Assembly: GCA_041640655.1 (NCBI GenBank)
Contig: JBEPZV010000001.1
Coordinates: forward strand, 160,229-224,228
From: a bacterium
GTDB lineage: Bacteria > Acidobacteriota > Blastocatellia > HR10
DNA: 64,000 nucleotides
Reading direction: 5' to 3'
Shown here: positions 2,963-64,000 of the stretch, in pieces
How positions within the stretch are numbered: position 1 is the stretch's first letter
Layout: the number at the start of each line of letters is the position of its first letter
Notes under the pieces: model-generated
Seen by the model: only the letters and a program-made list of their open reading frames with translations
What the model was told of the DNA's origin: nothing
Database searches by the model: none
Made by a program: the position numbers and the translations under genes

Positions 2963-2996
2963 CCGATCCTCACATCGCCGCAGGGAGGACGTCACC

Positions 2997-23434: not shown

Positions 23435-23450
23435 TCGCCATGGCGCAGAA

Positions 23451-23644: not shown

Positions 23645-24280
23645 ATGCGACGGAGAACGTTTCACTCGATGACGAAAGTGGGGGCGATGATCGCGCTCAT
23701 GGGGATGTATGCTTGGGGTGTGGAGGCCCGTCTCTCCCAAGCGCCGCCCGTCCAGGATTCACGCCTGGAGCCGGCGCTCCAGCAAGCCCGGCAGGTGGCC
23801 AATGAGTTGGCCGACACAGTTCGCCGCCTGCTGTTCAAAGAGCTGGAGAAAGGAGGATATGCTGATGCGGTGCGCGTTTGCTCGGAAGTGGCCCAGGACA
23901 TCCCGCGCGAGTTCACCGCTCGCACCGGTCATTCTGTTCGCCGCGTGAGCCTCGGCTATCGCAATCCCAAGGATGTGCCCGATGACTATGAGCGGCAGAA
24001 GCTCGAAGAATTCGACCGCCTCAATCGGGGGAAGAAGCTAGAGAACGATTACTTTGAGGTTGTGAAAGAAGGCGAGCGTGAGTATCTCCGTTATCTCAAG
24101 CCACTCATTGCCGGGCCGATGTGTCTCACCTGTCACGGCGAGACGGCGAACATCCCGCCGGAGGTGAGGGCGATTCTCGCTGAGAAGTACCCTGAGGACC
24201 GAGCGACCGGCTATCACACGGGCGACGTGCGCGGAGCTATCAGTGTGAAGATCGCCTTGCCGCCGGGCAAGCCTCAATGA
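23645..24280 (+). CDS. DUF3365/Tll0287-like periplasmic c-type heme protein
   Basis: Signal peptide; RRVSLGYRNP; CLTCH; YPEDRATGY...GDVRGAIS. Confidence 0.85.
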   Translation: MRRRTFHSMTKVGAMIALMGMYAWGVEARLSQAPPVQDSRLEPALQQARQVANELADTVRRLLFKELEKGGYADAVRVCSEVAQDIPREFTARTGHSVRRVSLGYRNPKDVPDDYERQKLEEFDRLNRGKKLENDYFEVVKEGEREYLRYLKPLIAGPMCLTCHGETANIPPEVRAILAEKYPEDRATGYHTGDVRGAISVKIALPPGKPQ

Positions 24281-41259: not shown

Positions 41260-41296
41260 TGCTATGAAGTGAAACCATAAAAGGAGAGATTCGATT

Positions 41297-42301
41297 ATGA
41301 GACCAGATAGAAGAACCTTTCTAAAATGGAGTATTTCGGGGACCACGTTTTTCGCCGCAGCCTCTTTGCTTGATTTACGTGGAGACCGAGCGGCGGCTGT
41401 CGTAGGAACCCTGAGCGAAGCTCATGCAAGCGCCAGGCGCCCCTTGTTTGTTGCCCCGCAACGCGAATTCGTTCTTCGTGTGCGTGAGGGATTCCGCCGG
41501 ATGGTGGATGGCCGCAGCCTCTACGCGTGGGGATATACAGATGAGAGTGGTGTGATTCAAGGCGTCGGACCGCCGCTCACGGTTCGTGAGGGTGAGCGAA
41601 TCACAGTGACGCTGGTGAATGAGGGCCGCGATGGGCATAGCTTCCATATCAAGGACATTCTCTCAGATCAAACGGTGGTTCCGCCGGGAGGGCAACATAC
41701 GTATGAGTTCATGGCTCCGCTGGCGGGGACTTACCTCTACTACGATTCGGCCAATGATCCGCTTGGTCGGGCGCTGGGGCTGTGCGGCGCATTGGTGGCG
41801 TTGCCTGCTGATGGCCGTCAGACAGCGTGGACTGGCGGCCCGGCGTTCGATCAGCAATTCCTCTGGGTGCTCAGCGAGCTGGATGAGCGATGGAACGTGG
41901 CCCGGCAAAACGCCCAACCGGTCGACCTGCGGGACTATCGGCCCAACTATTTCTTCATCAATGGCCGGAGTTTCCCCGAGACCATGTCTGATCCAAACGC
42001 GATGATGGCAGGTCGCGTCGGGCAGACCGTTTTGATCCGCACCGTCAACGGCGGACTCATCTCGCACGCGATGCACTTTCACGGGTATCACTTCAGAATC
42101 ATCGCCCGAAATGGGCAGCCGCAAGCTGCGTTCATCGAGAAAGATACTTTCGTCGTCTATCCCGGCGAAACGATGGACGTGCTCGTCACACTCGACCAGC
42201 CGGGCCGATACCCGGTGCATGATCACTCGCTGATGGCGGTGACCGCCAATGGCGTTTATCCCAACGGCATGATGGCCGAATTTGATGTGAGGGAGGCGTA
42301 A
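41297..42301 (+). CDS. two-domain multicopper oxidase-like protein A (Tat)
   Basis: RRTFLK; domain 2 HAMHFHG and HDH; domain 1 YYD in place of HCH. Confidence 0.85.
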   Translation: MRPDRRTFLKWSISGTTFFAAASLLDLRGDRAAAVVGTLSEAHASARRPLFVAPQREFVLRVREGFRRMVDGRSLYAWGYTDESGVIQGVGPPLTVREGERITVTLVNEGRDGHSFHIKDILSDQTVVPPGGQHTYEFMAPLAGTYLYYDSANDPLGRALGLCGALVALPADGRQTAWTGGPAFDQQFLWVLSELDERWNVARQNAQPVDLRDYRPNYFFINGRSFPETMSDPNAMMAGRVGQTVLIRTVNGGLISHAMHFHGYHFRIIARNGQPQAAFIEKDTFVVYPGETMDVLVTLDQPGRYPVHDHSLMAVTANGVYPNGMMAEFDVREA

Positions 42302-42303
42302 CG

Positions 42304-43185
42304 ATGGCAATTCGAGATTTCACACTCTTTGCTGGTTTCGGTAGCACGACGATGCCCGACGGAAACACGTTTCCGGTTTGGGGCTTCTCCACCACGCCTG
42401 GACGGGTAGTCGTTCCTGCTCCCACGCTCACGGTGAACGAAGGCGACTGGGTCAGGCTCACGCTGCGCAACATGACGATGATGGAACACACCATTCATCC
42501 CCACGGCCTCGATGTTGACACACTCAACGACGGAGTTCCCCACACTTCCTTCACCGTGCCGCCCATGGGCAGTTACACCTATCAGTTCACGGCCAGGCAC
42601 GCCGGAACGTATGCTTATCATTGTCACGTCAACACCGTGCTTCATCAGCAGATGGGGATGTATGGCGCGTTCATTGTGATGCCTGCTGATGGAAGTCAGC
42701 GGGCATGGACGGGCGGGCCTGCGTTTGACAAGCAATACGTTTGGGTGCTGAGCGAATTCGATAGCGCGTGGCATCGAGCGGCGGGCATGATGGGTGGTCC
42801 TCCCGTGGGCAACGTCAATTTCGCTTCCTACAATCCCGACTACTTTCTTATAAACGGCAAGGCTGATCCGGAGACGCTCAGCGACGCGTCGACGGCCATC
42901 GTCGCGGATCGAGGCCAACGGGTGCTCGTCCGGTTGATCAACATGGGGTACTTAAACCAACGAGTCTCGCTTGGCGCATTGCTGTTTCGAGTGATCGCCT
43001 CCGATGGCCGACCTCTGCCGCGAAGTTATGAAGCGAGCCGTATCGTTCTCGCTCCGGGTGAGCGATATGATGTTCTTGTGGCGGTGCCTCAAGAGCCAGG
43101 CGTGCATACAGCGCAGGTGGATTATCTGTCGCTGTACGACGGCTCAGTCTTAGGAGTAGCCAGAACCCAGATTCGGGTCGCGTGA
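42304..43185 (+). CDS. two-domain multicopper oxidase-like protein B (no signal peptide)
   Basis: Domain 1 HTIHPHG and HCHVNTVLHQQMGM; domain 2 lacks Cu-binding His pairs. Confidence 0.85.
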   Translation: MAIRDFTLFAGFGSTTMPDGNTFPVWGFSTTPGRVVVPAPTLTVNEGDWVRLTLRNMTMMEHTIHPHGLDVDTLNDGVPHTSFTVPPMGSYTYQFTARHAGTYAYHCHVNTVLHQQMGMYGAFIVMPADGSQRAWTGGPAFDKQYVWVLSEFDSAWHRAAGMMGGPPVGNVNFASYNPDYFLINGKADPETLSDASTAIVADRGQRVLVRLINMGYLNQRVSLGALLFRVIASDGRPLPRSYEASRIVLAPGERYDVLVAVPQEPGVHTAQVDYLSLYDGSVLGVARTQIRVA

Positions 43186-43615: not shown

Positions 43616-44002
43616 ATGAACGCATTTGAGCGAACAGTCACAACTGACAAATCGTTTGAAGAGGCCGTTGCGGCCATTGAGCAGAAGGCCGCTGAGAAGG
43701 GTTTCCGGGTGCTGCACACGCACGATGTGGCGGCGACGTTGGCGGAAAAGGGCTTCCCACGCGAGCCCCTGAAGATTATTGAAATCTGCAACGCCAAGTA
43801 CGCGAGCCAGGTGCTCAACAGGGATGTGAAGATTTCCCTCATGCTCCCCTGCCCGATCAGTGTGTATGTCGAAGGCGGCCAGACGCACATCAGCACGCTG
43901 CTCCCGACTTCGATTGTGCAGTTCTTTCCCCACGCCGGGATTGAGGATCTCGCGTCGGAGGTGGAGAGCATTGTGCTCCGGATTATAGAAGAGGCGCGTT
44001 GA
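43616..44002 (+). CDS. DUF302 domain protein
   Basis: GFRVLHTHDV, EICNA, LMLPCPISV. Confidence 0.85.
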   Translation: MNAFERTVTTDKSFEEAVAAIEQKAAEKGFRVLHTHDVAATLAEKGFPREPLKIIEICNAKYASQVLNRDVKISLMLPCPISVYVEGGQTHISTLLPTSIVQFFPHAGIEDLASEVESIVLRIIEEAR

Positions 44003-44007
44003 GGAAA

Positions 44008-45921
44008 ATGAAAGAGGATAAGAAAATGAAAGAGGACAAGAAGGAAGAAATCTTTGAGGGGAAATGGTACGCTCACCCCCCAATGCGAAACGCATTGATA
44101 GCCGCCGTGCTCGCAGGCACCGCATTTGGGTTGGCTCATCTTGGGAGTATTCCTTCGCTGGTCGAGACCGCTCTCTATCTGGTGGCCATCCCATTGGGTG
44201 GCTACCACTGGGCTCGCGAAGGGATTGAAGAGTTGATCGAAGAGAACGAGATCGGCATAGAAATCCTGATGCTGGCGGCTACGCTTGGTTCAGCGGTGTT
44301 GGGCATGTTGGATGAAGCCGCCTTCCTGGTCGTCCTCTACGGGGCGGCTGAGGGATTGGAGGAGTACACCTACGCCAGAACCAGGGCTTCCATCAGGAAA
44401 CTTCTCGACCTCGCTCCCAAAGAGGCGAGAGTCATCAGGAATGGGGAAGAAATAATCATACCCGCTGAAGAGATAGCTGTCGGAGATGTCTTCGTCGTCC
44501 GGCCCGGCGAGTCCATCCCAACAGATGGCATTATTGTCAAAGGTCGGTCCAGCATCAATGAGGCTCCTGTGACCGGCGAATCCATCCCGGTTGAAAAGAA
44601 AGAGGGAATGAAGGTCTTTGCCGCTACTATCAATCAAGAAGGAGCGTTGGAGATCAGGGCCACAGCGACGTTTGAAGATAATACCCTCGCCAAAATGGTC
44701 CATCTGGTCGAGGAAGCACAGGAACAAAAGAGCAAGACTCAGCTCTTCATTGAAACGTTTGGGCGGAGATACTCTCCGTTAGTCCTCTTGAGTTCCTTGC
44801 TTCTCATCGTCATCCCTCCTCTGATCGGAGCGTCTTTTTCGGAATGGGCAACAAGGGCGGTGGTCCTTTTAGTCGCCGCTGCCCCTTGTGCTTTGGTGAT
44901 GTCTACGCCCGTCGCCATTGCCGCTGGGATTGGTCGGGCGGGCCGATCTGGCGTGCTGATTAAGGGAGGAATTCATCTCGAAAATCTGGGCAAGATCAAG
45001 GCGGTGGCGTTCGATAAGACAGGAACGCTCACCAGAGGCAAACCCATTGTAACCGACGTGGTGCCCCTGAATGGAGACGAATCTCAACTGCTGGCGTTCG
45101 CTTACAGTGTGGAGAGATTTTCTGAGCATCCCCTGGCCCAGGCCATTGTGGAAAAGGCGAAAGAATCTCATGTCGAGGCTCTGGAAGCCACCGACTTTAG
45201 CGCTCTTGTTGGTTCGGGCGCGAAGGCCAAGATTGCCGGCAGAACGATTTACGTTGGCAAACCAGGGCTATTTGAAGAGCTGGGTCTGAAGGTCCGGGGC
45301 ATTCCAGACGCTGAGAGGCTCAGGGACGAAGGGAAGACGGTGATTCTCGTGGGCACAGAAGAAAGTATTGCAGGGTTCATTGCCATCCGAGATGAGGTGA
45401 GACCCCAAGCCAAAGAGGTCGTAGATCAGCTTCACCGGATGGGTGTGAGAGTCGTCATGCTGACTGGCGACAATGAGGTGACGGCCAAAGCGATTGCTAA
45501 GGAACTGGGTATAGATGAAGTGAAGGCCGATCTCAAGCCAGAAGATAAGATCAAAGCGGTGGAAGAATTGGAAAAGAAGTATGGGTCTGTGGCGATGGTT
45601 GGTGATGGTATCAACGATGCGCCGGCATTGGCCAGAGCGACCGTTGGCATAGCTATGGGCGTAGCCGGGACCGATGCCGCCATCGAAGCCGCCGATATTG
45701 CTCTTATGGCCGATGATCTCACCAAGGTGGTTTATGCGATCAATCTTGGCAAGAGAGCCAGACGGATCAGCTTGCAGAACATTGTCTTTTCGCTCCTCAT
45801 TCTGGCGGTTCTGATACCCTCAGCTCTCATTGGCATCATGACAGTGGCCATTGCGGTTGTGGCGCATGAGGGCTCAGAGCTTTTGGCGGTGGCCAATGGT
45901 TTGCGGGTAGCAAGGGGGTAG
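44008..45921 (+). CDS. P1B heavy-metal ATPase (Zn/Cd/Co type, no N-terminal HMA domain)
   Basis: [30 protein letters not shown]. Confidence 0.92.
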   Translation: MKEDKKMKEDKKEEIFEGKWYAHPPMRNALIAAVLAGTAFGLAHLGSIPSLVETALYLVAIPLGGYHWAREGIEELIEENEIGIEILMLAATLGSAVLGMLDEAAFLVVLYGAAEGLEEYTYARTRASIRKLLDLAPKEARVIRNGEEIIIPAEEIAVGDVFVVRPGESIPTDGIIVKGRSSINEAPVTGESIPVEKKEGMKVFAATINQEGALEIRATATFEDNTLAKMVHLVEEAQEQKSKTQLFIETFGRRYSPLVLLSSLLLIVIPPLIGASFSEWATRAVVLLVAAAPCALVMSTPVAIAAGIGRAGRSGVLIKGGIHLENLGKIKAVAFDKTGTLTRGKPIVTDVVPLNGDESQLLAFAYSVERFSEHPLAQAIVEKAKESHVEALEATDFSALVGSGAKAKIAGRTIYVGKPGLFEELGLKVRGIPDAERLRDEGKTVILVGTEESIAGFIAIRDEVRPQAKEVVDQLHRMGVRVVMLTGDNEVTAKAIAKELGIDEVKADLKPEDKIKAVEELEKKYGSVAMVGDGINDAPALARATVGIAMGVAGTDAAIEAADIALMADDLTKVVYAINLGKRARRISLQNIVFSLLILAVLIPSALIGIMTVAIAVVAHEGSELLAVANGLRVARG

Positions 45922-46025
45922 AGGCGAACCATGAGTTCAAAGTGCGCATTGACCGCTTCCTGACAGGCAAAGGAACACGCATGCAGGGTTGTTGGACATG
46001 GCGGAGATCAAGTCGCTTTTGTCGC

Positions 46026-46076
46026 TGGACACTTTCACTTGCCGTCTCTAGAATAGTTGAGCAATTGTTCAATTAT
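46026..46076 (+). promoter_or_regulatory. sigma70 promoter with overlapping SmtB/CadC-type operator
   Basis: TGGACA-N17-TAGAAT (46026-46054); inverted repeat ATAGTTGAGCA-AT-TGTTCAATTAT (46053-46076). Confidence 0.75.
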
Positions 46077-46091
46077 GATTATGAGGTGAAT

Positions 46092-46490
46092 ATGCCGAAA
46101 GCGACTGTCACTAAGAAGCGAACCAGCGCCCGGCTCCCAGTGCGCGACACGTGCGAGCAAGTTTGCTACGATGCGCCGCTTGTGCGCACGCTCAAGCGAG
46201 AGATGCTCGCCGACGATACTGTGATGGAACTGGTGGCGACCTTCGAGGTTTTGGCCGACCCAACACGCCTCCGAATTATCTACGCGCTCGGCCGGGGCGA
46301 ATTGTGCGTGTGCGACCTGGCGCATGTGCTGGGGATGAGCTTGTCTGCCACGTCGCACCAACTGCGGCGACTGCGCGATCTTCGGCTGGTCAAGTACCGA
46401 TACGAGGGCCGGATGGCCTTCTATTCGCTCGATGACGAGTTCATCAAGAAGATGGTGGAAGATGCGGTGCAGCACGTAGAGAGTGATTGA
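46092..46490 (+). CDS. ArsR/SmtB metalloregulator (CadC/SmtB-like)
   Basis: N-terminal CEQVC; LADPTRLRI; ELCVCDLA; SHQLR; C-terminal H. Confidence 0.9.
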   Translation: MPKATVTKKRTSARLPVRDTCEQVCYDAPLVRTLKREMLADDTVMELVATFEVLADPTRLRIIYALGRGELCVCDLAHVLGMSLSATSHQLRRLRDLRLVKYRYEGRMAFYSLDDEFIKKMVEDAVQHVESD

Positions 46491-46491
46491 G

Positions 46492-47610
46492 ATGACGAAT
46501 CAAGAGCCGATTGAGAAAATCCGATCCGAACTGCAAGAGGGCATGAGCCTGGCCAAATGCCGGAAGTGTGGATGCATGAAGGAGACCCTGGAAAATCTCG
46601 GGACTTCGCTTTCTTCAATCGAAACTCCGGCTTCTTCAGATTTGCGTCAACAGATCGGAGCCTGGCTAAAGCAAATGGAACCGATCAAGTATGCGTGCCT
46701 GGGGTGCGAGTATTGCTTCCCGGCGGTGGCGATGAATGTTTTTCACCAAGCCTTTCCTGAAGCCGCACAGGGTCCATCGCTAGGGTGCGCCTTTGAAGTG
46801 AGAGTGCGAACCTGGCCCCCTGTGCCAGGGGAATATTTCGCTTTCTGTGATGGCCCAGCTTGTCCAGTCGCCGTCTCCACTCTGGCCAGTGTGGAACTGG
46901 CCGAAACGCTGGCCGGCATAAGACCAAAAGAGCTTTGCATTGTCGGCAAGACAGAGACAGAAAACATCGGCATTGACAAGGTCATCAAGAACACGATCAC
47001 CAATCCCACGATTCGCTTTCTTCTGTTGGTGGGGGAAGACCCTCAAGGCCATCAGCCCGGCAGGACATTTCTTGCTCTGTCGAAAAATGGTGTTGATGAG
47101 AACGGGCGGGTGATAGGCTCTCCTGGCAAGCGCCCTATTTTAAGAAACGTGACCCCTGAAGAGGTGGAAACCTTTCGGAAACAGGTGCGGGTTGTGGACC
47201 TAATTGGATGTGAAGATGTGAAGACCATCATTGAGAAACTCAAAGAACTCTCACAGAGTCTCAGCCTGTCCTGCAACTGTGCGGAGTCCACTAAGGAAAC
47301 CATGCCTGTTCAGAATTCCACCGTGCCAGTCATTCAGGCAGAAGAGCCCACGAAAGTTGAGATGGATAAGGCCGGCTATTTCGTGATCATTCCACAGCCA
47401 GAGAAGGGGATCATCGCGGTAGAACATTACTCTTACGACAACCGGCTTTTAAGAGTCATTGAGGGCAAGAATGCCAGAAGCATCTCCTGGACAATCATTG
47501 AAAACGGTTGGGTGACGCAGCTCTCTCACGCCGCTTATCTCGGAAGGGAATTGGCTAAGGCAGAACTTTCAATGAGACTGAGATTCAAATACATTCAGGA
47601 CGGAGCATAA
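46492..47610 (+). CDS. Cys-rich N-domain + MtrA-like corrinoid-binding domain + DUF4346
   Basis: CRKCGC, CLGCEYC; WPPVPGEY, TENIGIDKVI, NPTIRFL..GH; MDKAGYF...SHAAYLGRELAKAE...YIQD. Confidence 0.85.
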   Translation: MTNQEPIEKIRSELQEGMSLAKCRKCGCMKETLENLGTSLSSIETPASSDLRQQIGAWLKQMEPIKYACLGCEYCFPAVAMNVFHQAFPEAAQGPSLGCAFEVRVRTWPPVPGEYFAFCDGPACPVAVSTLASVELAETLAGIRPKELCIVGKTETENIGIDKVIKNTITNPTIRFLLLVGEDPQGHQPGRTFLALSKNGVDENGRVIGSPGKRPILRNVTPEEVETFRKQVRVVDLIGCEDVKTIIEKLKELSQSLSLSCNCAESTKETMPVQNSTVPVIQAEEPTKVEMDKAGYFVIIPQPEKGIIAVEHYSYDNRLLRVIEGKNARSISWTIIENGWVTQLSHAAYLGRELAKAELSMRLRFKYIQDGA

Positions 47611-47615
47611 AAACG

Positions 47616-48302
47616 ATGGAAAGGGGAACTTCAACCATAGTGAAACAAGTTTTGGACGCGCAGCGCCAACATTGGGAAAATACATTTTCAAAGAAGCCTG
47701 ATATGTTTGGGAGCGAGCCCAGTGATTGCGCTCGAAAAGCAGCAGAGCTATTCAAAAAAGAAGGTCAAACCAAGATTCTCGAACTCGGAGGCGGACAGGG
47801 GCGAGATACCATCTTCTTTGCTCAAAGTGGTTTTCACGTTCACGTACTTGATTATTCTGGGAACGCAGTTGAAGCCATCACCCAAAAAGCCCGAGCATTG
47901 GGCTTGTCTCAGTCCGTCAGAGCGATATGTCACGATGTTAGAGAACCCCTCCCCTTCGATAATGAATCTTTCGATGGTTGCTATTCGCATATGTTGTATT
48001 GTATGGCGCTCACAACTTCGGAGCTCGAATTTCTTTCAGACGAAGTCAGGCGGGTATTAAAACCAGGTGGACTCAACATTTACACAGTTAGGCATACAGG
48101 TGACCCCCATTATGGAACAGGCATTCATCGAGGGGAGGGTATGTATGAGGTTGACGGATTTATTGTGCATTTTTTTAGTAAAGAAAAAGTACAACATTTA
48201 GCCAAAGGATATGAAATCGTTGGCGTTGATGAATTTGAAGAAGGTGGACTTCCCAGAAAACTATTCCGAGTAACACTGAGAAAGAAAGGAGGCGAATCAT
48301 GA
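47616..48302 (+). CDS. class I SAM-dependent methyltransferase
   Basis: ILELGGGQGRD, FDGCYSHM, RRVLKPGG. Confidence 0.9.
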   Translation: MERGTSTIVKQVLDAQRQHWENTFSKKPDMFGSEPSDCARKAAELFKKEGQTKILELGGGQGRDTIFFAQSGFHVHVLDYSGNAVEAITQKARALGLSQSVRAICHDVREPLPFDNESFDGCYSHMLYCMALTTSELEFLSDEVRRVLKPGGLNIYTVRHTGDPHYGTGIHRGEGMYEVDGFIVHFFSKEKVQHLAKGYEIVGVDEFEEGGLPRKLFRVTLRKKGGES

Positions 48303-48805
48303 CGAAGACAAAACTTGCAGTGCTCACTACCGCCTGCTTAATCTTAGGTGGCATTTGGCTGTCCAGTTATGCTCAACAGAGCGAAGTGCACAAAAAAGCA
48401 ACGGAAGGACAGTCTCAAATGCAAATGGGACCGGAGATGATGCAGCAAATGATGAAGGACATGGGCAACAATCCTATGATGGCCCAATGCCAGCACATGA
48501 TGCGCACCGTCATCTATCCCGATAGTGCATCGAGCATCCTTGCCTTGAAGGAACAACTTGACCTTTCCGAAAAGCAGACGAAAGAGCTCATAGCCATTCA
48601 GGAAAAGGCCAATGCCGAGGCAAAGAGAGTCCTTACCGAGGAGCAGGGTAAGAAGTTTGAAGCGCTGACCAAAGACTGGAAGCCACAATCCATGATGCAA
48701 TGCATGCAAACCATGATGTCTCAGATGCAGAAGATGATGGGAGGCCAGATGCCTGCCTGTCCTATGATGCAAATGATGCAAGGAAAGGAGCGACGAACAA
48801 AGTAA
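48299..48805 (+). CDS. exported Met-rich Spy/CpxP-like protein
   Basis: Signal peptide; LDLSEKQ and LTEEQ motifs; many Met residues. Confidence 0.6.
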   Translation: MTKTKLAVLTTACLILGGIWLSSYAQQSEVHKKATEGQSQMQMGPEMMQQMMKDMGNNPMMAQCQHMMRTVIYPDSASSILALKEQLDLSEKQTKELIAIQEKANAEAKRVLTEEQGKKFEALTKDWKPQSMMQCMQTMMSQMQKMMGGQMPACPMMQMMQGKERRTK

Positions 48806-54926: not shown

Positions 54927-57173
54927 ATGAAACGCTCCTTCACTCGTGCCATCTTGGTGTTGGTGGTGATCCTGGTTTCCGTTCAGGAGGGAGTGGCCGG
55001 GCAAAGCCATCCGGCGGATTCCATGCCTTCCCCGGTGCGCATCGCCACCGCGCGGCGGCTCACGGCGGAGATCACGCTGGATGGCCGGCTCGATGAACCG
55101 ATCTGGAACGAGATCGAGCCGATCACCGATTTCACCCAGACGGAACCCGACGAAGGCCAACCGGCAACCGAACGAACCGAAGTTCGGATCTTTTACGATC
55201 GCAAGAAGCTCTATTTCGGCTTTCGCTGCTTCGACTCGGAGCCGAGTCGAATCGTGGCTCGCCTCGATGCTCATGATGCCCGCACCTTCTCCGACAGTGT
55301 GGAGATTTTGCTCGACACGTTTCATGATCGTCGCACGGGCTATTTTTTCAGCGTCAATGCTCGCGGCGTTCAATTCGACGCCATTGTGTCGGAGACAACT
55401 GGAGGCGGCTCCGGCTTTGGCCTGTACGATGGGACGTGGGATGGACTGTGGGAGAGCGCGGCGACGATTGACGAATTCGGCTGGACGGCGGAAATCGCCA
55501 TCCCGTTCAAGATCCTCCGATTTCCTCGCACATCGCCGCAGACCTGGGGGCTCAATCTCGGCCGGGTAATTGTGAGAAAGAACGAAACCGTGCGCTGGTA
55601 TCCGGTGGCTCGGTTCGATGCGGTGATGAAGCCGTCGAAGTCCGGCGTCCTTCGAGGACTCGACGACATTGAGCCCGGACGCGATCTGGAGATCATTCCG
55701 TTCACCCTCCAGCCGGGGCGCTTTCGCACGACGGTTCCCACCCTTTCGGGCTATCATCCCACCGCCGGCGTGGACGTGCGCTATGGTCTGACGGCCAACC
55801 TGAAGGCGAACCTGACCGTCAATCCCGATTTCGCCCAGACCGAAGCGGACGAGATCAATATCACGCTCTCCCGGTTCGAGCTGTTTTTTCCGGAAAAGCG
55901 CGCGTTTTTCGTCGAAGGGGCGAATTTTTTCCGCACGCCGCTTCGCCTCTTCTTCACCCGACGGGTGGGCCTGCGGGTGCCCGACGGATCGGAGCAGCGG
56001 ATCGCCGCCGGAGCCAAGATCACCGGCAAGATCGGGCGATACAGTCTGGGTCTGCTGGAAGCCCGCACCCGCGATCAATTTTTCCTCGATCCCAAATCGG
56101 GACAACGGCGCGTGAGTCCGGGAGCCAATTTCTTCGTCCTGCGCCTGCAGCGCGACATCTTCGAGAAATCCGCGCTCGGATTCATCACGGTGAATCGGGA
56201 TCAGCCGGGGAGCGATTTTTCTCACTCGGTGCGCGCGCATGGGATTGATCTGTCGCTCGCCCGAGGACGACATGTCACCTTTTCCTCGCAGGTGGCCGTG
56301 AGTCAAAATCCCGGCGTGCGGGCGAGTCTGTGGCAGCAGGCCGGCGCCACGGCCGAGTTCCGCTATGATTCCGATCAATTCGAATACCAAGTTAAGGCGA
56401 AATATCTTGGCCGCGACTTCGATGTCGGCGGCATCGGCTTTGAGCCCGAGACGGGGCGGGTGAGCGGGCAGATGAGTTTCACCTACAAGCCGTTTCTCAA
56501 TCGCTTCGGCATCCGGCAGATTTTCCTGGAGCCCAACTACGATCACGTCGCTTTGGTGACGGGCGAGCTCGATGACTCGGGCGCCGATCTGCGCCTGCGC
56601 GTGCAATTGAAGAATTTCTGGTCGGTGCGGGCCGTCTATTCCTACGACCGGGTTCGATTCAACGAGTTCGTGAACCAAGCGGCGCTCGATCGGATGAGAG
56701 TCTACATCATGCCGCGCGTCATTCTGGGGGTGACGACCAATGAGAATCGGTCGGTTTCCCTGAGCCTTCAAGTCGTGCGGCGAAAGTTCGTGGACTTTCG
56801 TGACAACTACTACGGTCGTCTCTGGTTTTACGAAGTGGGGTTGAATGCCCGGCTGGCCGGCCGCACGAAGCTCGAACTGCGGGGCCTGCTCTTCCGCGAG
56901 TCTTTCATGAATGGGAAGCTGGAGGAGAATCGAAGTTTGATCCTCGCCCGCCTCGGCTATCAGTTCACGCCCAAGCTGCGCGCTCGATGGCTCGCCCAGT
57001 TCAACAACGACAATCGCCGCAATCAATTCAACCTCAACTTTCTGCTCTCTTACGATTTCACCGCCCGCAGCGCCCTGGCCATCGGCTACAACACGGAGAC
57101 GATCTCGCCCGAGTCGCCTTTTCGCCTCGGACGGGAATTCTTCGTGAAATTCTCCTATGTGTTGGCCTTTTGA
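54927..57173 (+). CDS. CBM9-like/DUF5916 outer-membrane protein
   Basis: Signal peptide; ITLDGRLDE..W, WTAEIAIPF, TVNPDFAQ.EAD, FFPEKR.FF.EG; terminal F. Confidence 0.85.
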   Translation: MKRSFTRAILVLVVILVSVQEGVAGQSHPADSMPSPVRIATARRLTAEITLDGRLDEPIWNEIEPITDFTQTEPDEGQPATERTEVRIFYDRKKLYFGFRCFDSEPSRIVARLDAHDARTFSDSVEILLDTFHDRRTGYFFSVNARGVQFDAIVSETTGGGSGFGLYDGTWDGLWESAATIDEFGWTAEIAIPFKILRFPRTSPQTWGLNLGRVIVRKNETVRWYPVARFDAVMKPSKSGVLRGLDDIEPGRDLEIIPFTLQPGRFRTTVPTLSGYHPTAGVDVRYGLTANLKANLTVNPDFAQTEADEINITLSRFELFFPEKRAFFVEGANFFRTPLRLFFTRRVGLRVPDGSEQRIAAGAKITGKIGRYSLGLLEARTRDQFFLDPKSGQRRVSPGANFFVLRLQRDIFEKSALGFITVNRDQPGSDFSHSVRAHGIDLSLARGRHVTFSSQVAVSQNPGVRASLWQQAGATAEFRYDSDQFEYQVKAKYLGRDFDVGGIGFEPETGRVSGQMSFTYKPFLNRFGIRQIFLEPNYDHVALVTGELDDSGADLRLRVQLKNFWSVRAVYSYDRVRFNEFVNQAALDRMRVYIMPRVILGVTTNENRSVSLSLQVVRRKFVDFRDNYYGRLWFYEVGLNARLAGRTKLELRGLLFRESFMNGKLEENRSLILARLGYQFTPKLRARWLAQFNNDNRRNQFNLNFLLSYDFTARSALAIGYNTETISPESPFRLGREFFVKFSYVLAF

Positions 57174-57591
57174 GCGGGAGCCCGTCTCACGCAGCGGGCG
57201 CAACATGCTGTTGGTGGTGGGGCGGCAGGGTTCATCCGCGGGGAGGTGCTCGCGCGAGGTCCATCGAGTCCGATAAGTAATGTTACGCCTCAAATGATAT
57301 CCCAAGCACCCATTCACGCCGCGTTCGGTCTCTTCGCCCACGCCCCTCACGTCCTCATGCGGAGAACCCCTCCAAAGGTCACGCCCGCAGGCTCGCCGCT
57401 CGCATCAGGCTTGCCACTCGCATGCGGCAATGGCCTCAAGGTCGGCCACCACATCCACAGCAGCCTACCGGAAAGCCCGCGCGCCGCGGCTTCCTCCGCG
57501 GATTACGACCCTATAAAACCGCAGGAATACAGAGTCCCGGCCCTTCCCGAATCCACGCGCACAACCCGGAACCCAGGTCATTGAGTGGCTC

Positions 57592-58173
57592 TCACTGCGC
57601 CGAGGACGACGACATTTCTCCAGGATCGGCTGTCACCATCTCCGGTTCGGGATCGACGCCGAGAGCATCTGCCACTCGGTTGATGTAGTTGAAATAGGCG
57701 ATAACCTGAACCAAGTCGAGAATGTCTCGGTCGCTCAGGCCCACGCTCCGCAGCCGATCCAGATCGGAAGGCGTGACGTTCCAGGGCGTGCGCGTCACTT
57801 TCTCGGCAAATTCACAGAGCGCACGCTCGCGCTCGCTGAGCGGAGCCCGTCGGTAATCGTGCTTCACCTGGGCCACCAGATCGTTGTTGTTGGTTTCCTT
57901 ACGGAGATCCTCCCCGTGCGCTTCGACTCAGTAGAAGCAGCGGTTGGCCCATGACGTGACGGTCGCCACCAGCTCCCGCTCGGCGCGCGAGAGCTTCGAT
58001 TCCCCGTACATCACCGTAAGGTAGAGCTGAACGCCCGCCCGCAAGGCCGCCGGATTGAGGCTCTGTACCTTGACGATATTGAAGACCTTCCCGGCCCGTC
58101 GCCGCGCGGCTTCATATTCTCGTGCCAGGAATCCGGTCGCTTCCTCTTCCCCGATGATCCGTATCCATGCCAT
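57592..58173 (-). CDS. AhpD/carboxymuconolactone decarboxylase-like peroxidase, predicted selenoprotein (CxxU, in-frame TGA 57928-57930)
   Basis: Two ORFs join in frame across TGA to give NRCFY-U-VEAHG; C-half AYFNYINRVADALG; hairpin after the UGA. Confidence 0.85.
57901..57917 (-). promoter_or_regulatory. putative bacterial SECIS hairpin
   Basis: ACGGGGA-GGA-UCUCCGU starting 11 nt after the UGA, with G in the apical loop. Confidence 0.65.
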
Positions 58174-58289
58174 AACTGCCTCCTCTGAGAAACACCCGCC
58201 CACCACACAAGACAACGCCCAATGAGCGGCCATCCTCTCTGCGCCTCATCGGTCGCAACGCGAACCCGCCTCAAAGGACGCGAGGCCCA

Positions 58290-58437
58290 CCACCGCGGGC
58301 TCACCCCAGTTCGACACCATGTCGCCAGCCGCAGCGAAACGAGAGGACATACACGTCTCTGCGCCTCGCGCTCGCGCCACGGCCGGCGTGGCCGTCGCAT
58401 CAATGCCGCCGCTCAGAAGAACCACGGCGTTCTTCAT
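58290..58437 (-). pseudogene. queC: 5' fragment of 7-cyano-7-deazaguanine synthase
   Basis: MKNAVVLLSGGID, then frameshifted VYVLSFRCGWRH..EL. Confidence 0.7.
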
Positions 58438-58708
58438 CAGAGCGACATTATACCAGGAGTCCGAAAGATGCAGATGGGCGGCCGCGTGTCACCACAGGCA
58501 GATCCGCTCTCCTTTCGCACACCGGCTCCTGCAGCTCCTGAGGACACGCCGCGCCAGTTGCCCCACCGACGGCGAGAAATTCCCCGACCGACCCGGCCCT
58601 CGACACATCCGGCCCGGTCGGTCGTGAGATCGGGCGTGGGCCACATGACCAACGAAGTCAATGCGTTAATTGGCCTCTCCGAATCCGCCCGCGGCGTCCA
58701 TTCCTTGC

Positions 58709-58724
58709 CGGCACGAGATTTGCT
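58709..58724 (+). promoter_or_regulatory. sigma54 promoter upstream of the multiheme cytochrome
   Basis: CGGCACGAGATTTGCT, GG-N10-GC. Confidence 0.65.
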
Positions 58725-58766
58725 ACATTTGTTTAACGCCGATGGAGAAATGAAAGAGAGGAGGTG

Positions 58767-59894
58767 ATGCGGATGCGCCGGTTGACGAAGATGAGCATCG
58801 TGTTTTCGGCGGTTTTGTTCGGAGGAATTCTTGTCCTCCCCGTGGGGGGCGGCGGCAAAGCACCCGTCAAACAGTCGGTCCCACCAGAACAGGCGTTCCC
58901 GACGAGCCTTCACGCGACGCGGCGGGGCAAAGCAACGTGGTACGCAGCGGCGAACGGCGGTTTTGAAGCATTGACAAACATCCCGATCAACCAGCTTGCT
59001 TGCCTCGGTTGTCACCCGGGCACTAAGGCGGATGGTTCTCCAATTGACCCGGCGACTTACAAACCGGATTGCTTCGACTGTCACATCCAGCCCGGCGACA
59101 GGGTGAGCGACCAGACTTGCCTCAAATGCCATCGCCGCCAAGCCTCCGAAATTGCGTTCGGCTACCCCGATGTGCACCGAAGTGCCGGTGGCTTCCGCTG
59201 CATGAGTTGCCACACGCTCAAAGAGATGCACGGCGACGGTCGCGAATACGCCTCCTGGCTCGAGCCCGGCGCAATGGAGGTGACCTGCGAACAATGCCAC
59301 CCCGCACCCAAGCGCAATCCTGCTCACGACATTCACCTGGCGACGGTTCAGTGCACTGCCTGCCACACCAAATCGGTCCTCTCGTGTTACAACTGCCACT
59401 TCGAGAGTGAGGTTGAGGGCGGGATAAAGCGACCTTATGGTGTGATGCGCGATTTCGTTTTCCTCGTCCGCAGACATGGAACCAACAAGGTCTATGCGGG
59501 AACGATGATGAGCTTGACGTACAATGGCAAATCCTTCGTCGCCATCGCCCCGTATCGAGCCCACACGATCGTCAAGGAAGCGCGCACGTGTGACGAGTGC
59601 CACAACAACGCGGCGGTTCAGGAATACCGGCAGACCGGCAAAATCACCATCACGAGATGGGACCCCGATCGAGGCAAATTGGTCGGTCCCAAAGGCATCA
59701 TCCCCATCCCTCCCGACTGGCGGCAGGCGCTGCAGTTTGACTTCGTCGACTACACTGGTGACCCCAAATCACCGACCACCGATCCGACCAAGTGGGTGTT
59801 TCTCAAATCAGGTGCGGATTTGATGCAGATGCTTTACGCCGACCCACTCACCCCTGAACAAATGCGGAAATTGTCCACGCCGTATTCGCCTTGA
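58767..59894 (+). CDS. octaheme c-type cytochrome
   Basis: Signal/TM segment; eight CxxCH motifs (CLGCH, CFDCH, CLKCH, CMSCH, CEQCH, CTACH, CYNCH, CDECH). Confidence 0.9.
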   Translation: MRMRRLTKMSIVFSAVLFGGILVLPVGGGGKAPVKQSVPPEQAFPTSLHATRRGKATWYAAANGGFEALTNIPINQLACLGCHPGTKADGSPIDPATYKPDCFDCHIQPGDRVSDQTCLKCHRRQASEIAFGYPDVHRSAGGFRCMSCHTLKEMHGDGREYASWLEPGAMEVTCEQCHPAPKRNPAHDIHLATVQCTACHTKSVLSCYNCHFESEVEGGIKRPYGVMRDFVFLVRRHGTNKVYAGTMMSLTYNGKSFVAIAPYRAHTIVKEARTCDECHNNAAVQEYRQTGKITITRWDPDRGKLVGPKGIIPIPPDWRQALQFDFVDYTGDPKSPTTDPTKWVFLKSGADLMQMLYADPLTPEQMRKLSTPYSP

Positions 59895-59905
59895 TACATG
59901 CCGGC

Positions 59906-59955
59906 AAGTGGCGGGGTGAAAAGGCGAAAGCCTCCCTCCCCCGCCACTTCTTTCA
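59906..59955 (+). terminator. hairpin, probable intrinsic terminator
   Basis: aagtggcgggg...ccccgccactt followed by ctttc. Confidence 0.5.
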
Positions 59956-59992
59956 CACCGATGGGTCAGACGATAAGGTCGCAATCCTCTTC

Positions 59993-60029
59993 GTCGCGAT
60001 CCTCTTGAAAGCGAGTCCCGGGTTCCAAC
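59993..60029 (-). CRISPR. isolated degenerate CRISPR repeat (plus a 14-nt partial copy at 59978)
   Basis: 32/37 match to the array repeat. Confidence 0.75.
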
Positions 60030-60053
60030 TCTAGGCGACAAGCAATGATTCCT

Positions 60054-61178
60054 TTACGCACCATCTTGAATGTATTTGAACCCCAGCTTGATGGAAAGCT
60101 CTGCCTTCGCCAACTCCTTGCCAAGGTAGGCGGCATGACTGAGTTGCGTAACCCAACCGTTGTTGATGATCGTCCAATAGATGCTCCGCGCATCCTGGCC
60201 CTCGATCACTCGCTGGAGCGTGTTATCGTAGGAGTAATGCTCGACGACGATGACCTGCCTTTCTGGTTGAGGGAGAATCACAAAATAGCCTGCCTTATCC
60301 ATCTCTATCTTTGCGGGCGGTTCCGCGCGGATGATGGGCACTTCTGAGAACGGAGCCGGAGTGGTTCGCTCGCGGGTTTCTCGACAGGCGCAAGACGGAC
60401 GAGACGTCTGAGCAAGTTCCTTGATTGTCTCAATGATGTTCTCCATATCTTCGCATCCTATCATATCCACAACCCGGACCTGCTTCCGGAAGACTTCCAC
60501 CTCTTCACGCGTTACATTCCTCAGAATCGGGCGTTTGCCAGGGGAACCGATGACTCGCATGGTTTCGTCAACCCCGTTTTCCCATAGGGCGAGGAAGGTC
60601 CTGCCGCTTTGGTGCCCCCTCGGATCTTTTCCGGCGACCAGGAGAAAGCGAATCGTTGGGTTTGTAATGATATTTTTGATCACCTTCTCAATGCCGATGT
60701 TTTCCGTCTCGGTCTTCCCCACAATACAAAGCTCTTTTGGCCTCGCGCGGGCAAGGCTTTCAGCAAGCTCTACCGAGGCAAGGGTGGAGACGGCCACAGG
60801 GCAGCCGGGACCATCGCAGAACGCATGATATTCTCCAGCAACCGGAGGCCACTTGTGCTCGCTCACCTCAAAGGCGCAACCGAGTGACTGAGATTCGCCG
60901 ACTTCAGGAAAGGCTTGATGAAACACGTTCATCGCCACCGCCGGAACGCAGTAATCGCACCCAAGGCAGGCATACTTGATCGGCTCCATCTGCCCCAGCC
61001 AGCGCTCGATATTTGCAAGCAAGTCCGAGGAAGCTTCGACTTGCAAAGACGAAAGCGAGGTTCGCAGGCTCTCTAAAGTCTCTTTCATACAGCCGCACTT
61101 CCGGCATTTCGGAAGCACCATGCCTTCTCGGAGTTCAGATTGAATTTTGTCCTTCCAATTTGCGTCCGTCATATCCAA
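60054..61178 (-). CDS. second Cys-rich/MtrA-like/DUF4346 protein
   Basis: Collinear with 46492..47610 and shares long identical runs (QMEPIKYACLGC, RPKELCIVGKTETENIGI, GWVTQLSHAAYLG). Confidence 0.85.
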   Translation of the reverse strand: MDMTDANWKDKIQSELREGMVLPKCRKCGCMKETLESLRTSLSSLQVEASSDLLANIERWLGQMEPIKYACLGCDYCVPAVAMNVFHQAFPEVGESQSLGCAFEVSEHKWPPVAGEYHAFCDGPGCPVAVSTLASVELAESLARARPKELCIVGKTETENIGIEKVIKNIITNPTIRFLLVAGKDPRGHQSGRTFLALWENGVDETMRVIGSPGKRPILRNVTREEVEVFRKQVRVVDMIGCEDMENIIETIKELAQTSRPSCACRETRERTTPAPFSEVPIIRAEPPAKIEMDKAGYFVILPQPERQVIVVEHYSYDNTLQRVIEGQDARSIYWTIINNGWVTQLSHAAYLGKELAKAELSIKLGFKYIQDGA

Positions 61179-61844
61179 TCCGTACTCCTTTTTATATGTC
61201 GCCTAACTATCGATTAAGACTATCAGGCCGTCTCGTCAAGTCGGAGGAGGAGGCGAGGGTTTCGGGTCGCCGGGGCCGTCGCGGACGAGGGCAAGATGGG
61301 AACAGAAGTGATGCTCGGATGCGTGCAAAATGCGTTATCATCTTTGCGCCCTGCGCCGAGGCGGGCCTCCTGCGGTAGGAGTCCGAACTCCGCATCCGCA
61401 TCGTCCGGGAGGCGTAGGCGGGGGCCGGAGCCCCCCGAAAATGAAACTCTGAGACTCAGGTGTGACTGTTCCATTTTTGGTGGGTCAGGGAGGGGACCTG
61501 GGACCAGGTCGGCGGGATGGGGGGCAGTGCCCCGCCACTTGCTTCCTCATCGCCGCCCCACAGGTCTTCACCCGTACCAAAGCCGGCCGGGTGTCGGCCC
61601 GAATGGGAAAAAGTCCCCACCCACGATGCCTTCATCCGACGGCTTCCGTGACAGCCTCCCGACACGAAAGCACTGGTGCCAGGGAGACCGAGGACTTCGC
61701 GGACCTTGAGCAGGAGCTTCTCCAATGCCCCAGCACCGGAGCCGCGTTTCCGAGGCGGGTCGTGAAGGATATGAGGTGCGTCCGTCGGAGGCGCGGCCCG
61801 CCCAGGCAATCACCGGCCCGGTGGGGAAATCCGAGGCTGTGAAG

Positions 61845-61959
61845 GTCGCAATCCTCTTCCAAGCGAGTCCCGGTTTCCCACAGCGCCCGCCATCCCCGAA
61901 TCGGAAGGCCCGCCTCGTTCAAGTCGCAAGCTTCTTTTCAGCCAGTCCCAGTTGCCGAC
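61845..61959 (-). CRISPR. two degenerate CRISPR repeats separated by a 41-nt spacer
   Basis: 61845-61881 and 61923-61959 are 37-nt variants of the array repeat. Confidence 0.75.
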
Positions 61960-62408
61960 CCGACATCCGCCAGGAGGAAGCCCCATGCGCACAAGCATGG
62001 ATTTGCCGAGGACAAAGCCGCCGCCCTCAGAGGAGATCATCCGCGCCATCCCCGCGGCCATCACACTCACCGTCGCGGCCGCCCGTTTGGGCATTCTGCG
62101 GGTTCTCCCTTCTGCCACCGCTCACCTCTTCACCACAACACTCGGAGGGCTTTCGCACCGATGAAGCAGGCCATCGAGATGACCCTCGCCATTGATGAGA
62201 ACGTCCTCACCATGGAGATCGTCGGAGCCTGCTCGCCCTCCGACTCCTGGGGCCTCAGCCTGAGCCTCCCCTGAGGAGAAGAGCGGGCCGCCGCCGCCCT
62301 GGCGAACGTCGCCCGCGCCCTCGGGATGCTGCACGAAGACGGCAAGACCCACATCCACGCCGACTCCGACAATCCCTGGGGGTGCGCTTACAACGGCGAT
62401 CACTACTG

Positions 62409-63053
62409 GTCGCAATCCTCTTTAAAGCGAGTCCTGGTTTCCGACGGGGGAAATCGAGGACGGTGTTGAATATAGCCGGCCTCGGTTGTCGCAATCCTCT
62501 TTAAAGCGAGTCCTGGTTTCCGACGCGGCAAAGCCCGCACGGTGTTGTCGGTAGCTGGATTGGGTCGCAATCCTCTTTAAAGCGAGTCCTGGTTTCCGAC
62601 AAAAGATGGCCACAAGGTGGTAATAGACATGCTGCTAAGCGTCGCAATCCTCTTTAAAGCGAGTCCTGGTTTCCGACAGAAAGTTGCTCTTGAGTGGGCT
62701 CCGGCGTTTACCGGAGTGTCGCAATCCTCTTTAAAGCGAGTCCTGGTTTCCGACCCGAAGTTGAGGAAATTGAGTAGTTACCGGACGCAAACGTCGCAAT
62801 CCTCTTTAAAGCGAGTCCTGGTTTCCGACTGTGATCTACGGAAAGTATGTGCCTCAGAAGTTGCTATGTCGCAATCCTCTTTAAAGCGAGTCCTGGTTTC
62901 CGACGGCTAGAGTTTATCTACGATGCTGCTCTCCCTAATCCGTCGCAATCCTCTTTAAAGCGAGTCCTGGTTTCCGACCGCGTACTTGAACGCCCATGCC
63001 GATCTTTTGGCGGATTGTCGCAATCCTCTTTAAAGCGAGTCCTGGTTTCCGAC
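62409..63053 (-). CRISPR. CRISPR array: 9 identical 37-nt repeats, 8 spacers of 37-42 nt
   Basis: Repeat GTCGGAAACCAGGACTCGCTTTAAAGAGGATTGCGAC (minus strand) at 62409, 62488, 62564, 62641, 62718, 62793, 62868, 62942, 63017; leader on the cas2 side. Confidence 0.98.
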
Positions 63054-63449
63054 TGCCGTGGGGTTTAGTTCTGAAAGTCCAATGGGTTAGGTGGGCGAAA
63101 GTGATAACCCCCATACCCCCTCGGGCTTCGGCCCCCATCTGAAGGGCCATGAAGGGACCGATGTTTCGACCTAACCCTCTGAATCCCCACATCTTAGCCT
63201 TCCGGTGATAACCCCCCTTACCCCCCCTCCCAAAACCAGGACCTCCGGGTTGTCAAACACCAAGCCGATTTGGGCACGTTCGCCCTTCTTTTACTCCATC
63301 TCACCCAAAAAGTCAACGGTTGTGTATCCGCCCGGCGCCTTTGGGACCCTACAGGTCCAGGAACTGCCGCACGCTGGATCACCTCTTCTGCCAATAAGGC
63401 GAGCACTGCGCTCTGGTCCCCCTTTGCGCGCTCGAAGATCGGCTCAAGC

Positions 63450-63743
63450 TCACCAGATGTAGATGTCCTCCTGACGGGTGACATCGCCTCGCCCCTCGAC
63501 GATGATCTCGTCCACGCAGGCCTGGCAGAGCCGATAGCAGCGCAGGCTGTCAGTCGCCGGATCAATCTTCGTTCGAAGCCGCCCGAGCAAGACTATGAAC
63601 TGATCCTCCGTCAGCAGGCACTCGAAGACGCTGTATTGGACGCGGGTGCCGAAGTCCTTGAGGATCTCGGCGACCTGGGTGCGCCGTTTGTCGTCGGTGA
63701 TGTCGTAGCTGATGATGTAGAACATGACGCGTTTGATCGGCAT
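63450..63743 (-). CDS. cas2: CRISPR-associated endoribonuclease Cas2
   Basis: YIISYDITDDKRR, RVQYSVFEC, DSLRCYRLC. Confidence 0.95.
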   Translation of the reverse strand: MPIKRVMFYIISYDITDDKRRTQVAEILKDFGTRVQYSVFECLLTEDQFIVLLGRLRTKIDPATDSLRCYRLCQACVDEIIVEGRGDVTRQEDIYIW

Positions 63744-63745
63744 GC

Positions 63746-64000
63746 TCAGGGTTCGGCCAAGTAGGGGGTATATTCCCCGCCGGTGGTGACGGCGTGCGCC
63801 AGGTGTTCGGCCTGTCCCAGCAGGAGCCGACGAAAGTTCGTGCGGTGGCCCGTATGGCGGGAGATGAAGGCACGCTGCATCATGTCCTCGTACTGGCGGA
63901 GGAAGTGCTTCTTCGCTTCCGGCGTGAACCAGATGCCGCCGCTCTCGGTGGCGGTGAAATGCTGGGGCGACAGGGCCTCGGTATTGAAGAGCGTCAGCAC
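63746..64000 (-). CDS. cas1: Cas1 C-terminus (cut by the window edge)
   Basis: Position directly upstream of cas2; ...KKHFLRQYE...QAEHLAHAV...YTPY. Confidence 0.75.
   Translation of the reverse strand: MLTLFNTEALSPQHFTATESGGIWFTPEAKKHFLRQYEDMMQRAFISRHTGHRTNFRRLLLGQAEHLAHAVTTGGEYTPYLAEP

Follow-up and report, generated by a model that had tools for sequence, protein, structure and literature searches.

In the window analysed here, a 64,000-nucleotide (nt) stretch of contig JBEPZV010000001.1 from an acidobacterium of the HR10 lineage (assembly GCA_041640655.1), a minus-strand gene at 60054-61178 encodes a protein that resembles MtrA and carries a DUF4346 domain. With a probability of roughly 80%, this gene is a relic integron gene cassette that lies in the decayed trailer of a clustered regularly interspaced short palindromic repeats (CRISPR) array and was acquired apart from the MtrA-like paralogue resident in the same window. 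According to this reading, a one-gene, promoterless MtrA/DUF4346 cassette circulates among integrons of several phyla, and one copy of it entered the lineage of this hot-spring acidobacterium separately from the resident paralogue. The relic has kept its 5' boundary and a few bases resembling an attI junction; of the attC hairpin, it retains the initial 9 nt on the R'' side and has lost the rest.

Cassette marks and cassette-borne homologues

The gene is a single open reading frame (ORF) with a ribosome-binding site; an alternative start, ATG at 61172, would give a protein of 372 amino acids, as in the database entry. Just ahead of the ribosome-binding site, the minus strand carries GTTAGGCGACA, the 5' boundary mark (also given as GTTAGGCGACAT), whose core GTTAGGC at 61207-61201 has the GTTRRRY form of an R' box. 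The same GTTAGGC is found in the R' boxes of attC sites of this genome and is the box upstream of the homologues in loci L009 and L046. Within this core, the crossover point would fall between G and TT, leaving G on one side and TTAGGCGACA on the other. At the opposite end of the gene, 13 nt past the stop codon, stands TGTCGCCTA (the same place reads GTCGCCTAGA), which is complementary to TAGGCGACA at 61205-61197 and is followed by 2 nt (GA) and then by a degenerate CRISPR repeat running from 60029 to 59993. The positions that an earlier note, made from the sequence alone, had assigned to the core site, TGTCGCCTA and adjoining repeat were all confirmed, as was their placing relative to the ribosome-binding site, start and stop. 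Its rule for cassette ends held in part: cassettes do start at GTTRRRY, but RYYYAAC is not the end of a cassette, since R'' begins attC.

When two 80-nt flanks at the spacing of this gene were placed at random 100,000 times in the genome, they shared a perfect inverted repeat of at least 9 nt in 4.7% of cases, so that the repeat alone is weak evidence. When the upstream arm also had to carry a GTTRRRY core, 7 of the 100,000 placements qualified (7e-5 per placement). That the inverted repeat is a chance match, and that the gene came by another route or is a diverged local duplicate of the resident copy, would suit the commonness of such repeats and the lack of an attC at the gene. The rarity of repeat and core together makes this explanation hard to credit, and two further observations, described below, count against it: L009 has conserved the pair, and the homologues in L046 and L048 are flanked by full attC sites.

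A stretch of 16 nt with the core site at its end, TAATCGATAGTTAGGC, agrees at 14/16 positions with the sequence (TAAACAATAGTTAGGC) in which attI meets the first cassette in both resident integrons, a score reached by 1.2% of 500 shuffles. On this sequence likeness, which is suggestive only, the fragment may once have been the first cassette at an attI of the resident type. The gene also differs in GC content (0.54) from the genome (63.7%) and from the DNA just upstream (64%).

The search for attC sites relied on a covariance model, R1, built from 8 attC sites (5 from this genome, 1 from L046 and 2 from L048), in place of a strict motif-and-fold scan that returned just 4 sites genome-wide and was too strict. 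The consensus fold of R1 consists of an R box, an unpaired spacer and an L stem with a bulged base, with compensatory changes at 9 of its 22 pairs. R1 was run on 62 homologue loci and on the corresponding locus of G002, the closest relative of this genome.

Several homologues proved to be cassette-borne. In L046, where the gene (3992-5119) encodes a protein with 80% amino acid identity, six co-oriented R1 matches mark a multi-cassette array, at 2226 (18.8 bits), 3911 (65.1 bits), 5134 (16.3 bits), 5811 (40.7 bits), 6536 (43.3 bits) and 7595 (15.1 bits). The second of these, a full attC with GTTAGGC, is directly upstream of the gene and the third directly downstream, with the fourth and fifth farther along, and each interval between consecutive attC sites holds one ORF. 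L050 is the same sequence as L046. Another multi-cassette array is found in L048 (gene at 2282-3403, 72% identity), with matches at 519 (45.9 bits, outside the training set), 1313 and 3415, and L078 (60% identity) has matches at 3139 (26.7 bits) and 3868 (19.5 bits), just upstream of the gene. Around all of these homologues, the attC sites lie on the strand of the gene.

The pair of marks seen in the window recurs in L009, a Deltaproteobacteria metagenome-assembled genome (MAG) whose homologue is 70% identical, and was found there among 24 homologue loci whose flanks were inspected. Upstream of this homologue lies GTTAGGCGAC, with AGTTAGGCGACAT before the ribosome-binding site, and 12 nt past the stop codon lies GTCGCCTAAC, with a complete RYYYAAC (GCCTAAC). 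The stretch after GTCGCCTAAC forms an imperfect hairpin (fold z -2.7) and ends in GTTATAC; R1 missed this AT-rich, attC-like site at E <= 1, so that the site rests on inspection and on its fold score. In L009, L046 and L048 alike, GTCGCC[T/G][A/G]AC occurs 12-15 nt past the stop. The earlier note had made its cassette proposal depend on the existence of cassette-borne homologues and on the conservation of the 9-bp inverted repeat, and had suggested a covariance search for attC. Both kinds of evidence were found, the former as the attC-flanked homologues of L046/L050, L048 and L078 and the latter as the GTTAGGCGAC/GTCGCCTAAC pair of L009; the search with R1 placed attC beside the L046, L048 and L078 homologues and none by the window gene.

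Archaeal homologues, 58-71% identical to the bacterial protein, occur in L012, L013, L017 and L022 (Nitrososphaeria, Caldarchaeum, Thermoproteota and Bathyarchaeota MAGs), and that of L013 has GCCTAAC past its stop codon. The MtrA-like cassette may have spread between the two domains.

Separate acquisition and loss of attC

The two MtrA-like copies of the window are about 74-75% identical in amino acid sequence. Among 2394 database homologues of the second copy, that is, the gene at 60054-61178, 25 clusters from outside this genome outscore the paralogue within it, the best being 81-82% identical, compared to 75% for the paralogue. In a phylogenetic tree, the second copy falls in a clade with L046, L011 and L014/L073 (Shimodaira-Hasegawa-like approximate likelihood ratio test, SH-aLRT, 98), and the first copy in a clade with the copies from G003 and G004 of the same genus, G008 of the same order and L051 (SH-aLRT 99). 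This placement, with the second copy beside L046 and the first beside related genomes, indicates that the two copies arrived separately. The DNA similarity of the second copy to the first and to its nearest relatives, such as L046, is limited to the ORF, which together with the tree and the identities also speaks against a local duplicate matched by chance to cassette ends. The earlier note had supposed an independent arrival and had proposed a phylogeny to tell acquisition from local duplication; the tree, the closer outside homologues, the GC content and the absence of a copy at the corresponding site of G002 all support its view.

The first copy belongs to an operon at 43999-48805 that encodes a P-type ATPase, an ArsR protein with an N-terminal extension, the MtrA-like protein, an S-adenosylmethionine-dependent methyltransferase and a 168-residue protein without a family. 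The operon is low in GC (0.44-0.57) and adjoins RND and multicopper-oxidase genes (38179-43185). Its methyltransferase is closest to the NCBIfam family 'selenoprotein MduS', at 299 bits (below the cut-off of 380), and weakly matches 'corrinoid protein-associated methyltransferase CpaM'.

Comparison with G002, which is syntenic at this locus, outlines the novel DNA. Nucleotide homology to G002 (87%) spans the neighbouring cytochrome gene and stops exactly at 59977, then resumes at 61788 (72%) in a stretch that includes the degenerate repeat A; between these points, G002 has 195 nt in place of 1810 nt (59978-61787). The left edge of the novel DNA relative to G002 is not sharp. No MtrA-like homologue was found anywhere in G002 (87% completeness), including the syntenic site, and the stretch 61180-61800 showed no similarity within this genome or to any fetched locus. 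The locus is real and stable: over 59700-62437, contigs of 7846, 8406 and 4543 nt from three other metagenome studies match it with zero differences, and the metagenome contig L044 is 100% identical over 7085 nt.

The genome is an established integron host. Two integron integrase genes, at C1:10597-11541 and C1:14447-15391 on the minus strand, score 479.7 and 485.8 bits against NCBIfam TIGR02249, well above the cut-off of 265 bits, which none of 14 control genomes exceeded; both appear intact, and they are accompanied by attC sites at C1:8709-13702. R1 finds at least 7 attC matches at E <= 1e-4 in the genome, and attC is present in 5 of the 7 genomes of the genus. In the integron (C1:7600-15700, locus L032), each of the two tandem integrase genes is followed on the same strand by a conserved attI-like region of 190 nt with a TTGACA-17-TATTAT promoter-like pair and two GTTAGGC boxes. 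The cassettes, co-oriented with intI, encode an O-methyltransferase, a cupin, a CDF cation-efflux protein split into two ORFs, a globin, an SCO4226-like nickel-responsive protein and others. An integron with two integrases and co-oriented cassettes is thereby documented in a thermophilic acidobacterium.

The window itself holds a single R1 attC, a solitary full site at 23447-23512 (61 bits). Past this site come about 70 nt similar to the beginning of the O-methyltransferase cassette in the integron (81.7% identity to C1:8651-8754, over 104 nt), and then unrelated sequence and a Tll0287-like ORF (23519-24280). The stretch 23447-23570 is a second cassette relic in the window.

A number of findings weigh against reading the gene at 60054-61178 as a former cassette. 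Two defining features of a cassette are missing there: the imperfect 3' hairpin of attC (about 55-140 nt, R''-L''...L'-R'), of which only TGTCGCCTA is left, and a location beside intI, attI or another attC. With its filters off, R1 gave no attC match within 59,000-62,000 except 8-bit noise at 59133; the 3' flank folds no better than shuffles (z +0.67) and contains no hairpin; and the R'' remnant reads GCCTAGA, where GCCTAAC is expected. In this assembly, about 205 kb separate the gene from the nearest intI, and no intI pseudogene or remnant was found in 59900-62450 (best E 2.4). R1 matches next to the gene occur in only 4 of the 62 homologue loci (3 distinct sequences), to which L009 is added by eye. 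Of 43 full-length loci, 4 have a strict RYYYAAC no farther than 45 nt from the stop (background 3%), and GTTRRRY occurs in 6 of 39 loci (background 6%), each a weak enrichment. Either most relatives are not visibly in cassettes, or R1, trained on GC-rich sites, misses their type of attC. The tree comes from a quick IQ-TREE run only, on 41 proteins derived from the loci. Between the cassette and the conserved trailer stand 580 nt of GC-rich DNA that match nothing in this genome or the fetched loci.

The gene does have the 5' boundary of a cassette, and its homologues do occur as cassettes; it descends from one. A promoterless cassette would suit the result that no sigma-70-like promoter site was found in 59700-63500, by a scan of little power, since it also misses the promoter of the CRISPR leader. 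That this copy lost most of its attC, as the earlier note held, is supported by the lack of a hairpin and of any unfiltered R1 match nearby. With the hairpin gone, an integron integrase can no longer excise the gene, which makes it an immobilised ex-cassette. A mini-hairpin upstream of GTTAGGC (61197-61240) was no better than shuffles, and an Rfam scan of 57000-64000 at E <= 1 returned no family.

Position in the CRISPR trailer

Read along the minus strand, the locus starts with cas1 (cut by the contig end and adjoining cas2), cas2, the leader and the live array. Two decayed repeats come 450 nt farther on, and another 637 nt separate them from the gene, behind which stand one more decayed repeat and a partial repeat (Table 1). 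Apart from the copies listed, an ungapped scan of the window with the 37-nt repeat gave no site above 21/37. The degenerate repeats are co-oriented and leader-distal, and repeat A is conserved in G002 together with its flanking block, as befits a CRISPR trailer; the earlier note had rightly placed the gene among such repeats. All three decayed repeats carry C at position 27, where the live repeat has T, and repeat A and the partial repeat have one further variant in common, so that these copies look like the remains of an older version of the array. Since G002 has a decayed repeat at the position of the terminal repeat, the terminal repeat is native, and the cassette stands directly upstream of it.

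Table 1. Features of the MtrA-like gene and its surroundings (positions in the window)
Feature	Position	Strand	Remarks
MtrA-like ORF, second copy in the window	60054-61178	minus	intact, 374 amino acids from TTG at 61178
5' cassette boundary, GTTAGGCGACA	61207-61197	minus	GTTRRRY (R') core GTTAGGC plus GACA
Ribosome-binding site AAGGAG	61190-61185	minus	from the sequence
Stop codon TAA of the MtrA-like ORF	60056-60054	minus	from the sequence
R''-side remnant of the lost attC, TGTCGCCTA	60040-60032	minus	13 nt past the stop
attI-junction-like stretch of 16 nt, TAATCGATAGTTAGGC	61216-61201	minus	local alignment; ends in the core site
First, resident MtrA-like copy	46483-47610	plus	no cassette marks
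Non-coding GC-rich (0.64) block, 580 nt, between cassette and conserved trailer	61208-61787		like the cassette and repeat B, without a clear counterpart in G002
Multihaem cytochrome gene, convergent	58764-59894	plus	3' end faces the terminal repeats
Partial repeat, 15 nt	59978-59992	minus	G002 homology begins just beyond, at 59977
Degenerate repeat B (terminal)	59993-60029	minus	32/37
Degenerate repeat A	61845-61881	minus	33/37; position conserved in G002
Degenerate repeat	61923-61959	minus	29/37
Live CRISPR array, nine identical 37-nt repeats	62409-63053	minus	perfect matches
CRISPR leader	63054-63449	minus	63096-63320 98% identical to the second leader, C1:1-225
cas2	63450-63743	minus	Pfam CRISPR_Cas2, 5.2e-26

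An exact 18-nt direct repeat (59975-59992 = 61842-61859), which covers the variant common to repeat A and the partial repeat and occurs only twice in the genome, brackets a 1.85-kb block with the gene. It was rejected as a target-site duplication, both flanks being native in G002, and would be explained more simply as two related old repeats with a 15-nt tandem duplication in the terminal repeat.

The relic sits in the decayed trailer in the same orientation as the array, directly upstream of the terminal degenerate repeat. The trailer would have served as a selectively neutral landing site, and may be no more than that to the cassette, and expression of the gene would rely on transcription from upstream, either from the CRISPR leader or from the trailer. 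One metatranscriptome run yielded contigs on 60958-61177, 61468-61898, 61912-62079 and 62241-62429, at a depth of 3-5, which cover the trailer and the first 220 nt of the gene. These contigs were rejected as evidence of read-through, their strand being undefined and carry-over of DNA being possible.

The attC remnant ends only 2 nt from the start of repeat B, and it is thus conceivable that an integrase (IntI) inserted a circular cassette at a CRISPR repeat used as a secondary site, with attC later deleted by slippage, in which case repeats would act as integron targets. Repeat B begins GTTGGAA, its GTT standing in place of the GTC of the live repeat, and the repeat is in part a palindrome. 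The resident IntI genes appear intact, and G002 carries, immediately past the leader of the same CRISPR locus, a cassette whose attC scores 70 bits, the cassette array running straight into the leader. Such an insertion is nonetheless unlikely, as the upstream junction looks like that of attI (14/16), a feature not expected of a circular cassette inserted at a secondary site, and R1 scores neither the repeat nor the junction. Orphan, partly decayed repeats away from arrays (C62:970-1060, C20:38490-38553 and C34:956-992) show no cassette marks, CRISPR arrays are absent from all 62 homologue loci, and a single event may reflect chance adjacency. The C20 site has a short tandem run of the first 9 nt of the repeat. 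A wider physical interaction between CRISPR and integron, in which IntI used the hairpin-prone, GTT-starting repeat, the cassette is transcribed as an extension of the precursor CRISPR RNA and the trailer is a site of cassette capture and expression, is likewise improbable.

The closeness of cassettes and leader in G002 bears on another explanation, namely that the gene is the stranded last cassette of an array split by the CRISPR module, with the integron physically adjacent and hidden by the assembly. G002 has, in a single orientation and in this order, cassettes, attC, GTCAACGCC repeats, leader, repeat, trailer and cytochrome gene. In the present genome, a second array with identical repeats stands at the start of C13 (C13:1-1020), and its leader (98% identical over 225 nt, C1:1-225) joins it to the integron side of C1, where the 11-nt GTCAACGCC repeats come next and the integron follows at a distance of 7-15 kb. 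In other samples, contigs end within the shared leader stretch (loose ends at 63320), with both continuations seen, and the integron could be much nearer the gene than the 205 kb of the assembly. Even so, a split array is less likely still than insertion at a repeat: the assembly joins the gene-side array to cas2 and cas1, not to the integron, G002 does not have the gene here, the rest of the trailer contains neither an attC nor a cassette remnant, and the nearest relatives of the gene in the tree are foreign. Descent from a separately acquired cassette is therefore preferred.

Directly past the second CRISPR leader, an 11-nt unit (TGTCAACGCCY) is repeated about 14 times in tandem (C1:226-404; also L043:6700-6780), and these copies are conserved in G002. 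In G002, the trailer by the cytochrome gene is joined to the integron-side leader via a single repeat, which may reflect either a real rearrangement or a join made across the repeat during assembly.

The protein and comparison with known systems

From its N- to its C-terminus, the product of the gene consists of a Cys-rich region, a cobalamin-binding domain of MtrA type and a PterinBD-DUF4346 domain, with Pfam matches to MtrA (1.3e-40, above the gathering score) and PterinBD-DUF4346 (7.6e-24). Residues 109-257 match the MtrA of PDB entry 5L8X (E 1e-31). In the predicted structure (mean pLDDT, the predicted local distance difference test score, 72.5), only the MtrA domain matches PDB chains at E <= 0.001 in Foldseek, and all seven of these matches are MtrA chains (best 1.5e-11, about 40% identity). 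A GH motif aligns with the QGH of MtrA, whose histidine is the cobalt ligand. In 38 homologues, H187 is nearly invariant, as are the Cys motifs C23-x2-C26-x-C28 and C69-x2-C72-x2-C75.

The protein is not placed among the subunits of the Mtr complex: it scores below all NCBIfam cut-offs, including those of the MtrA equivalogs (NF002128, 442.7 against 568; TIGR01111, 130.9 against 249), and its neighbours are not Mtr subunits. In the homologue loci, some of which are near-duplicates, 16 of 61 neighbouring ORFs are metal-related (ArsR, P-type ATPase, HMA, CDF, RND, FeoB and DsbD_TM). The protein would be a self-contained corrinoid methyl carrier, probably involved in metal or metalloid handling; that it occurs as a one-gene cassette is in keeping with a function selectable by itself. 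No paper on DUF4346 or PterinBD was found, and searches for MtrA with integrons, and for integron cassettes with CRISPR arrays, gave nothing relevant by title or abstract.

These results make a corrinoid-binding MtrA/DUF4346 protein, with 60-82% identity in most of the fetched bacterial and archaeal loci, a cargo of integrons, which explains its patchy spread and argues for a benefit conferred by the single gene. They further suggest that former cassettes can be recognised after the decay of attC from an extended R-box complement at both ends. Tools based on attC would miss cassettes of this kind, and cassette-derived genes are thus probably undercounted. The adjacency to CRISPR repeats is a curiosity open to test.

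Among known systems, the methanogen Mtr complex contains the closest relative of the protein, MtrA (PDB 5L8X and 5LAA), which resembles it in the cobalamin-binding domain at about 40% identity. Unlike MtrA, the window protein also carries a Cys-rich domain at its N-terminus and a DUF4346 domain at its C-terminus, and its family occurs in bacteria and in non-methanogen archaea, without other Mtr subunits.

Clusters of attC sites lacking integron integrases (CALINs) and solitary attC sites are categories defined for IntegronFinder. The window gene resembles them in being a single ORF that starts between the G and TT of GTTRRRY, with homologues in attC-bounded arrays and a host that has intI and scattered attC sites. 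Unlike them, it has an attC of its own cut to 9 nt, is immobilised and lies in a CRISPR trailer instead of an attC cluster. Cassettes scattered outside functional integrons and attC clusters without an integrase are well known, as one published account relates (PMC9668308). With its attC reduced to 9 nt, the window gene would not be called by attC-based tools.

In class 1 integrons, IntI also inserts cassettes at secondary sites that are neither attI nor attC, and the whole attC is kept there. The window gene is like such insertions in lying away from attI, in being fixed and in having GTT at its downstream junction, but it differs from them in its missing attC and in its attI-like upstream junction. 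Lastly, the decayed repeats of the window, at 29-33 of 37 matching positions, resemble the trailer-end repeats of CRISPR arrays in being co-oriented and leader-distal, in having variant bases in common and in being partly conserved in the sister genome G002. They differ from a usual trailer in the 450 nt of non-repeat DNA that separate them from the live array, and in the 1.8-kb block, holding the gene, that lies between them.

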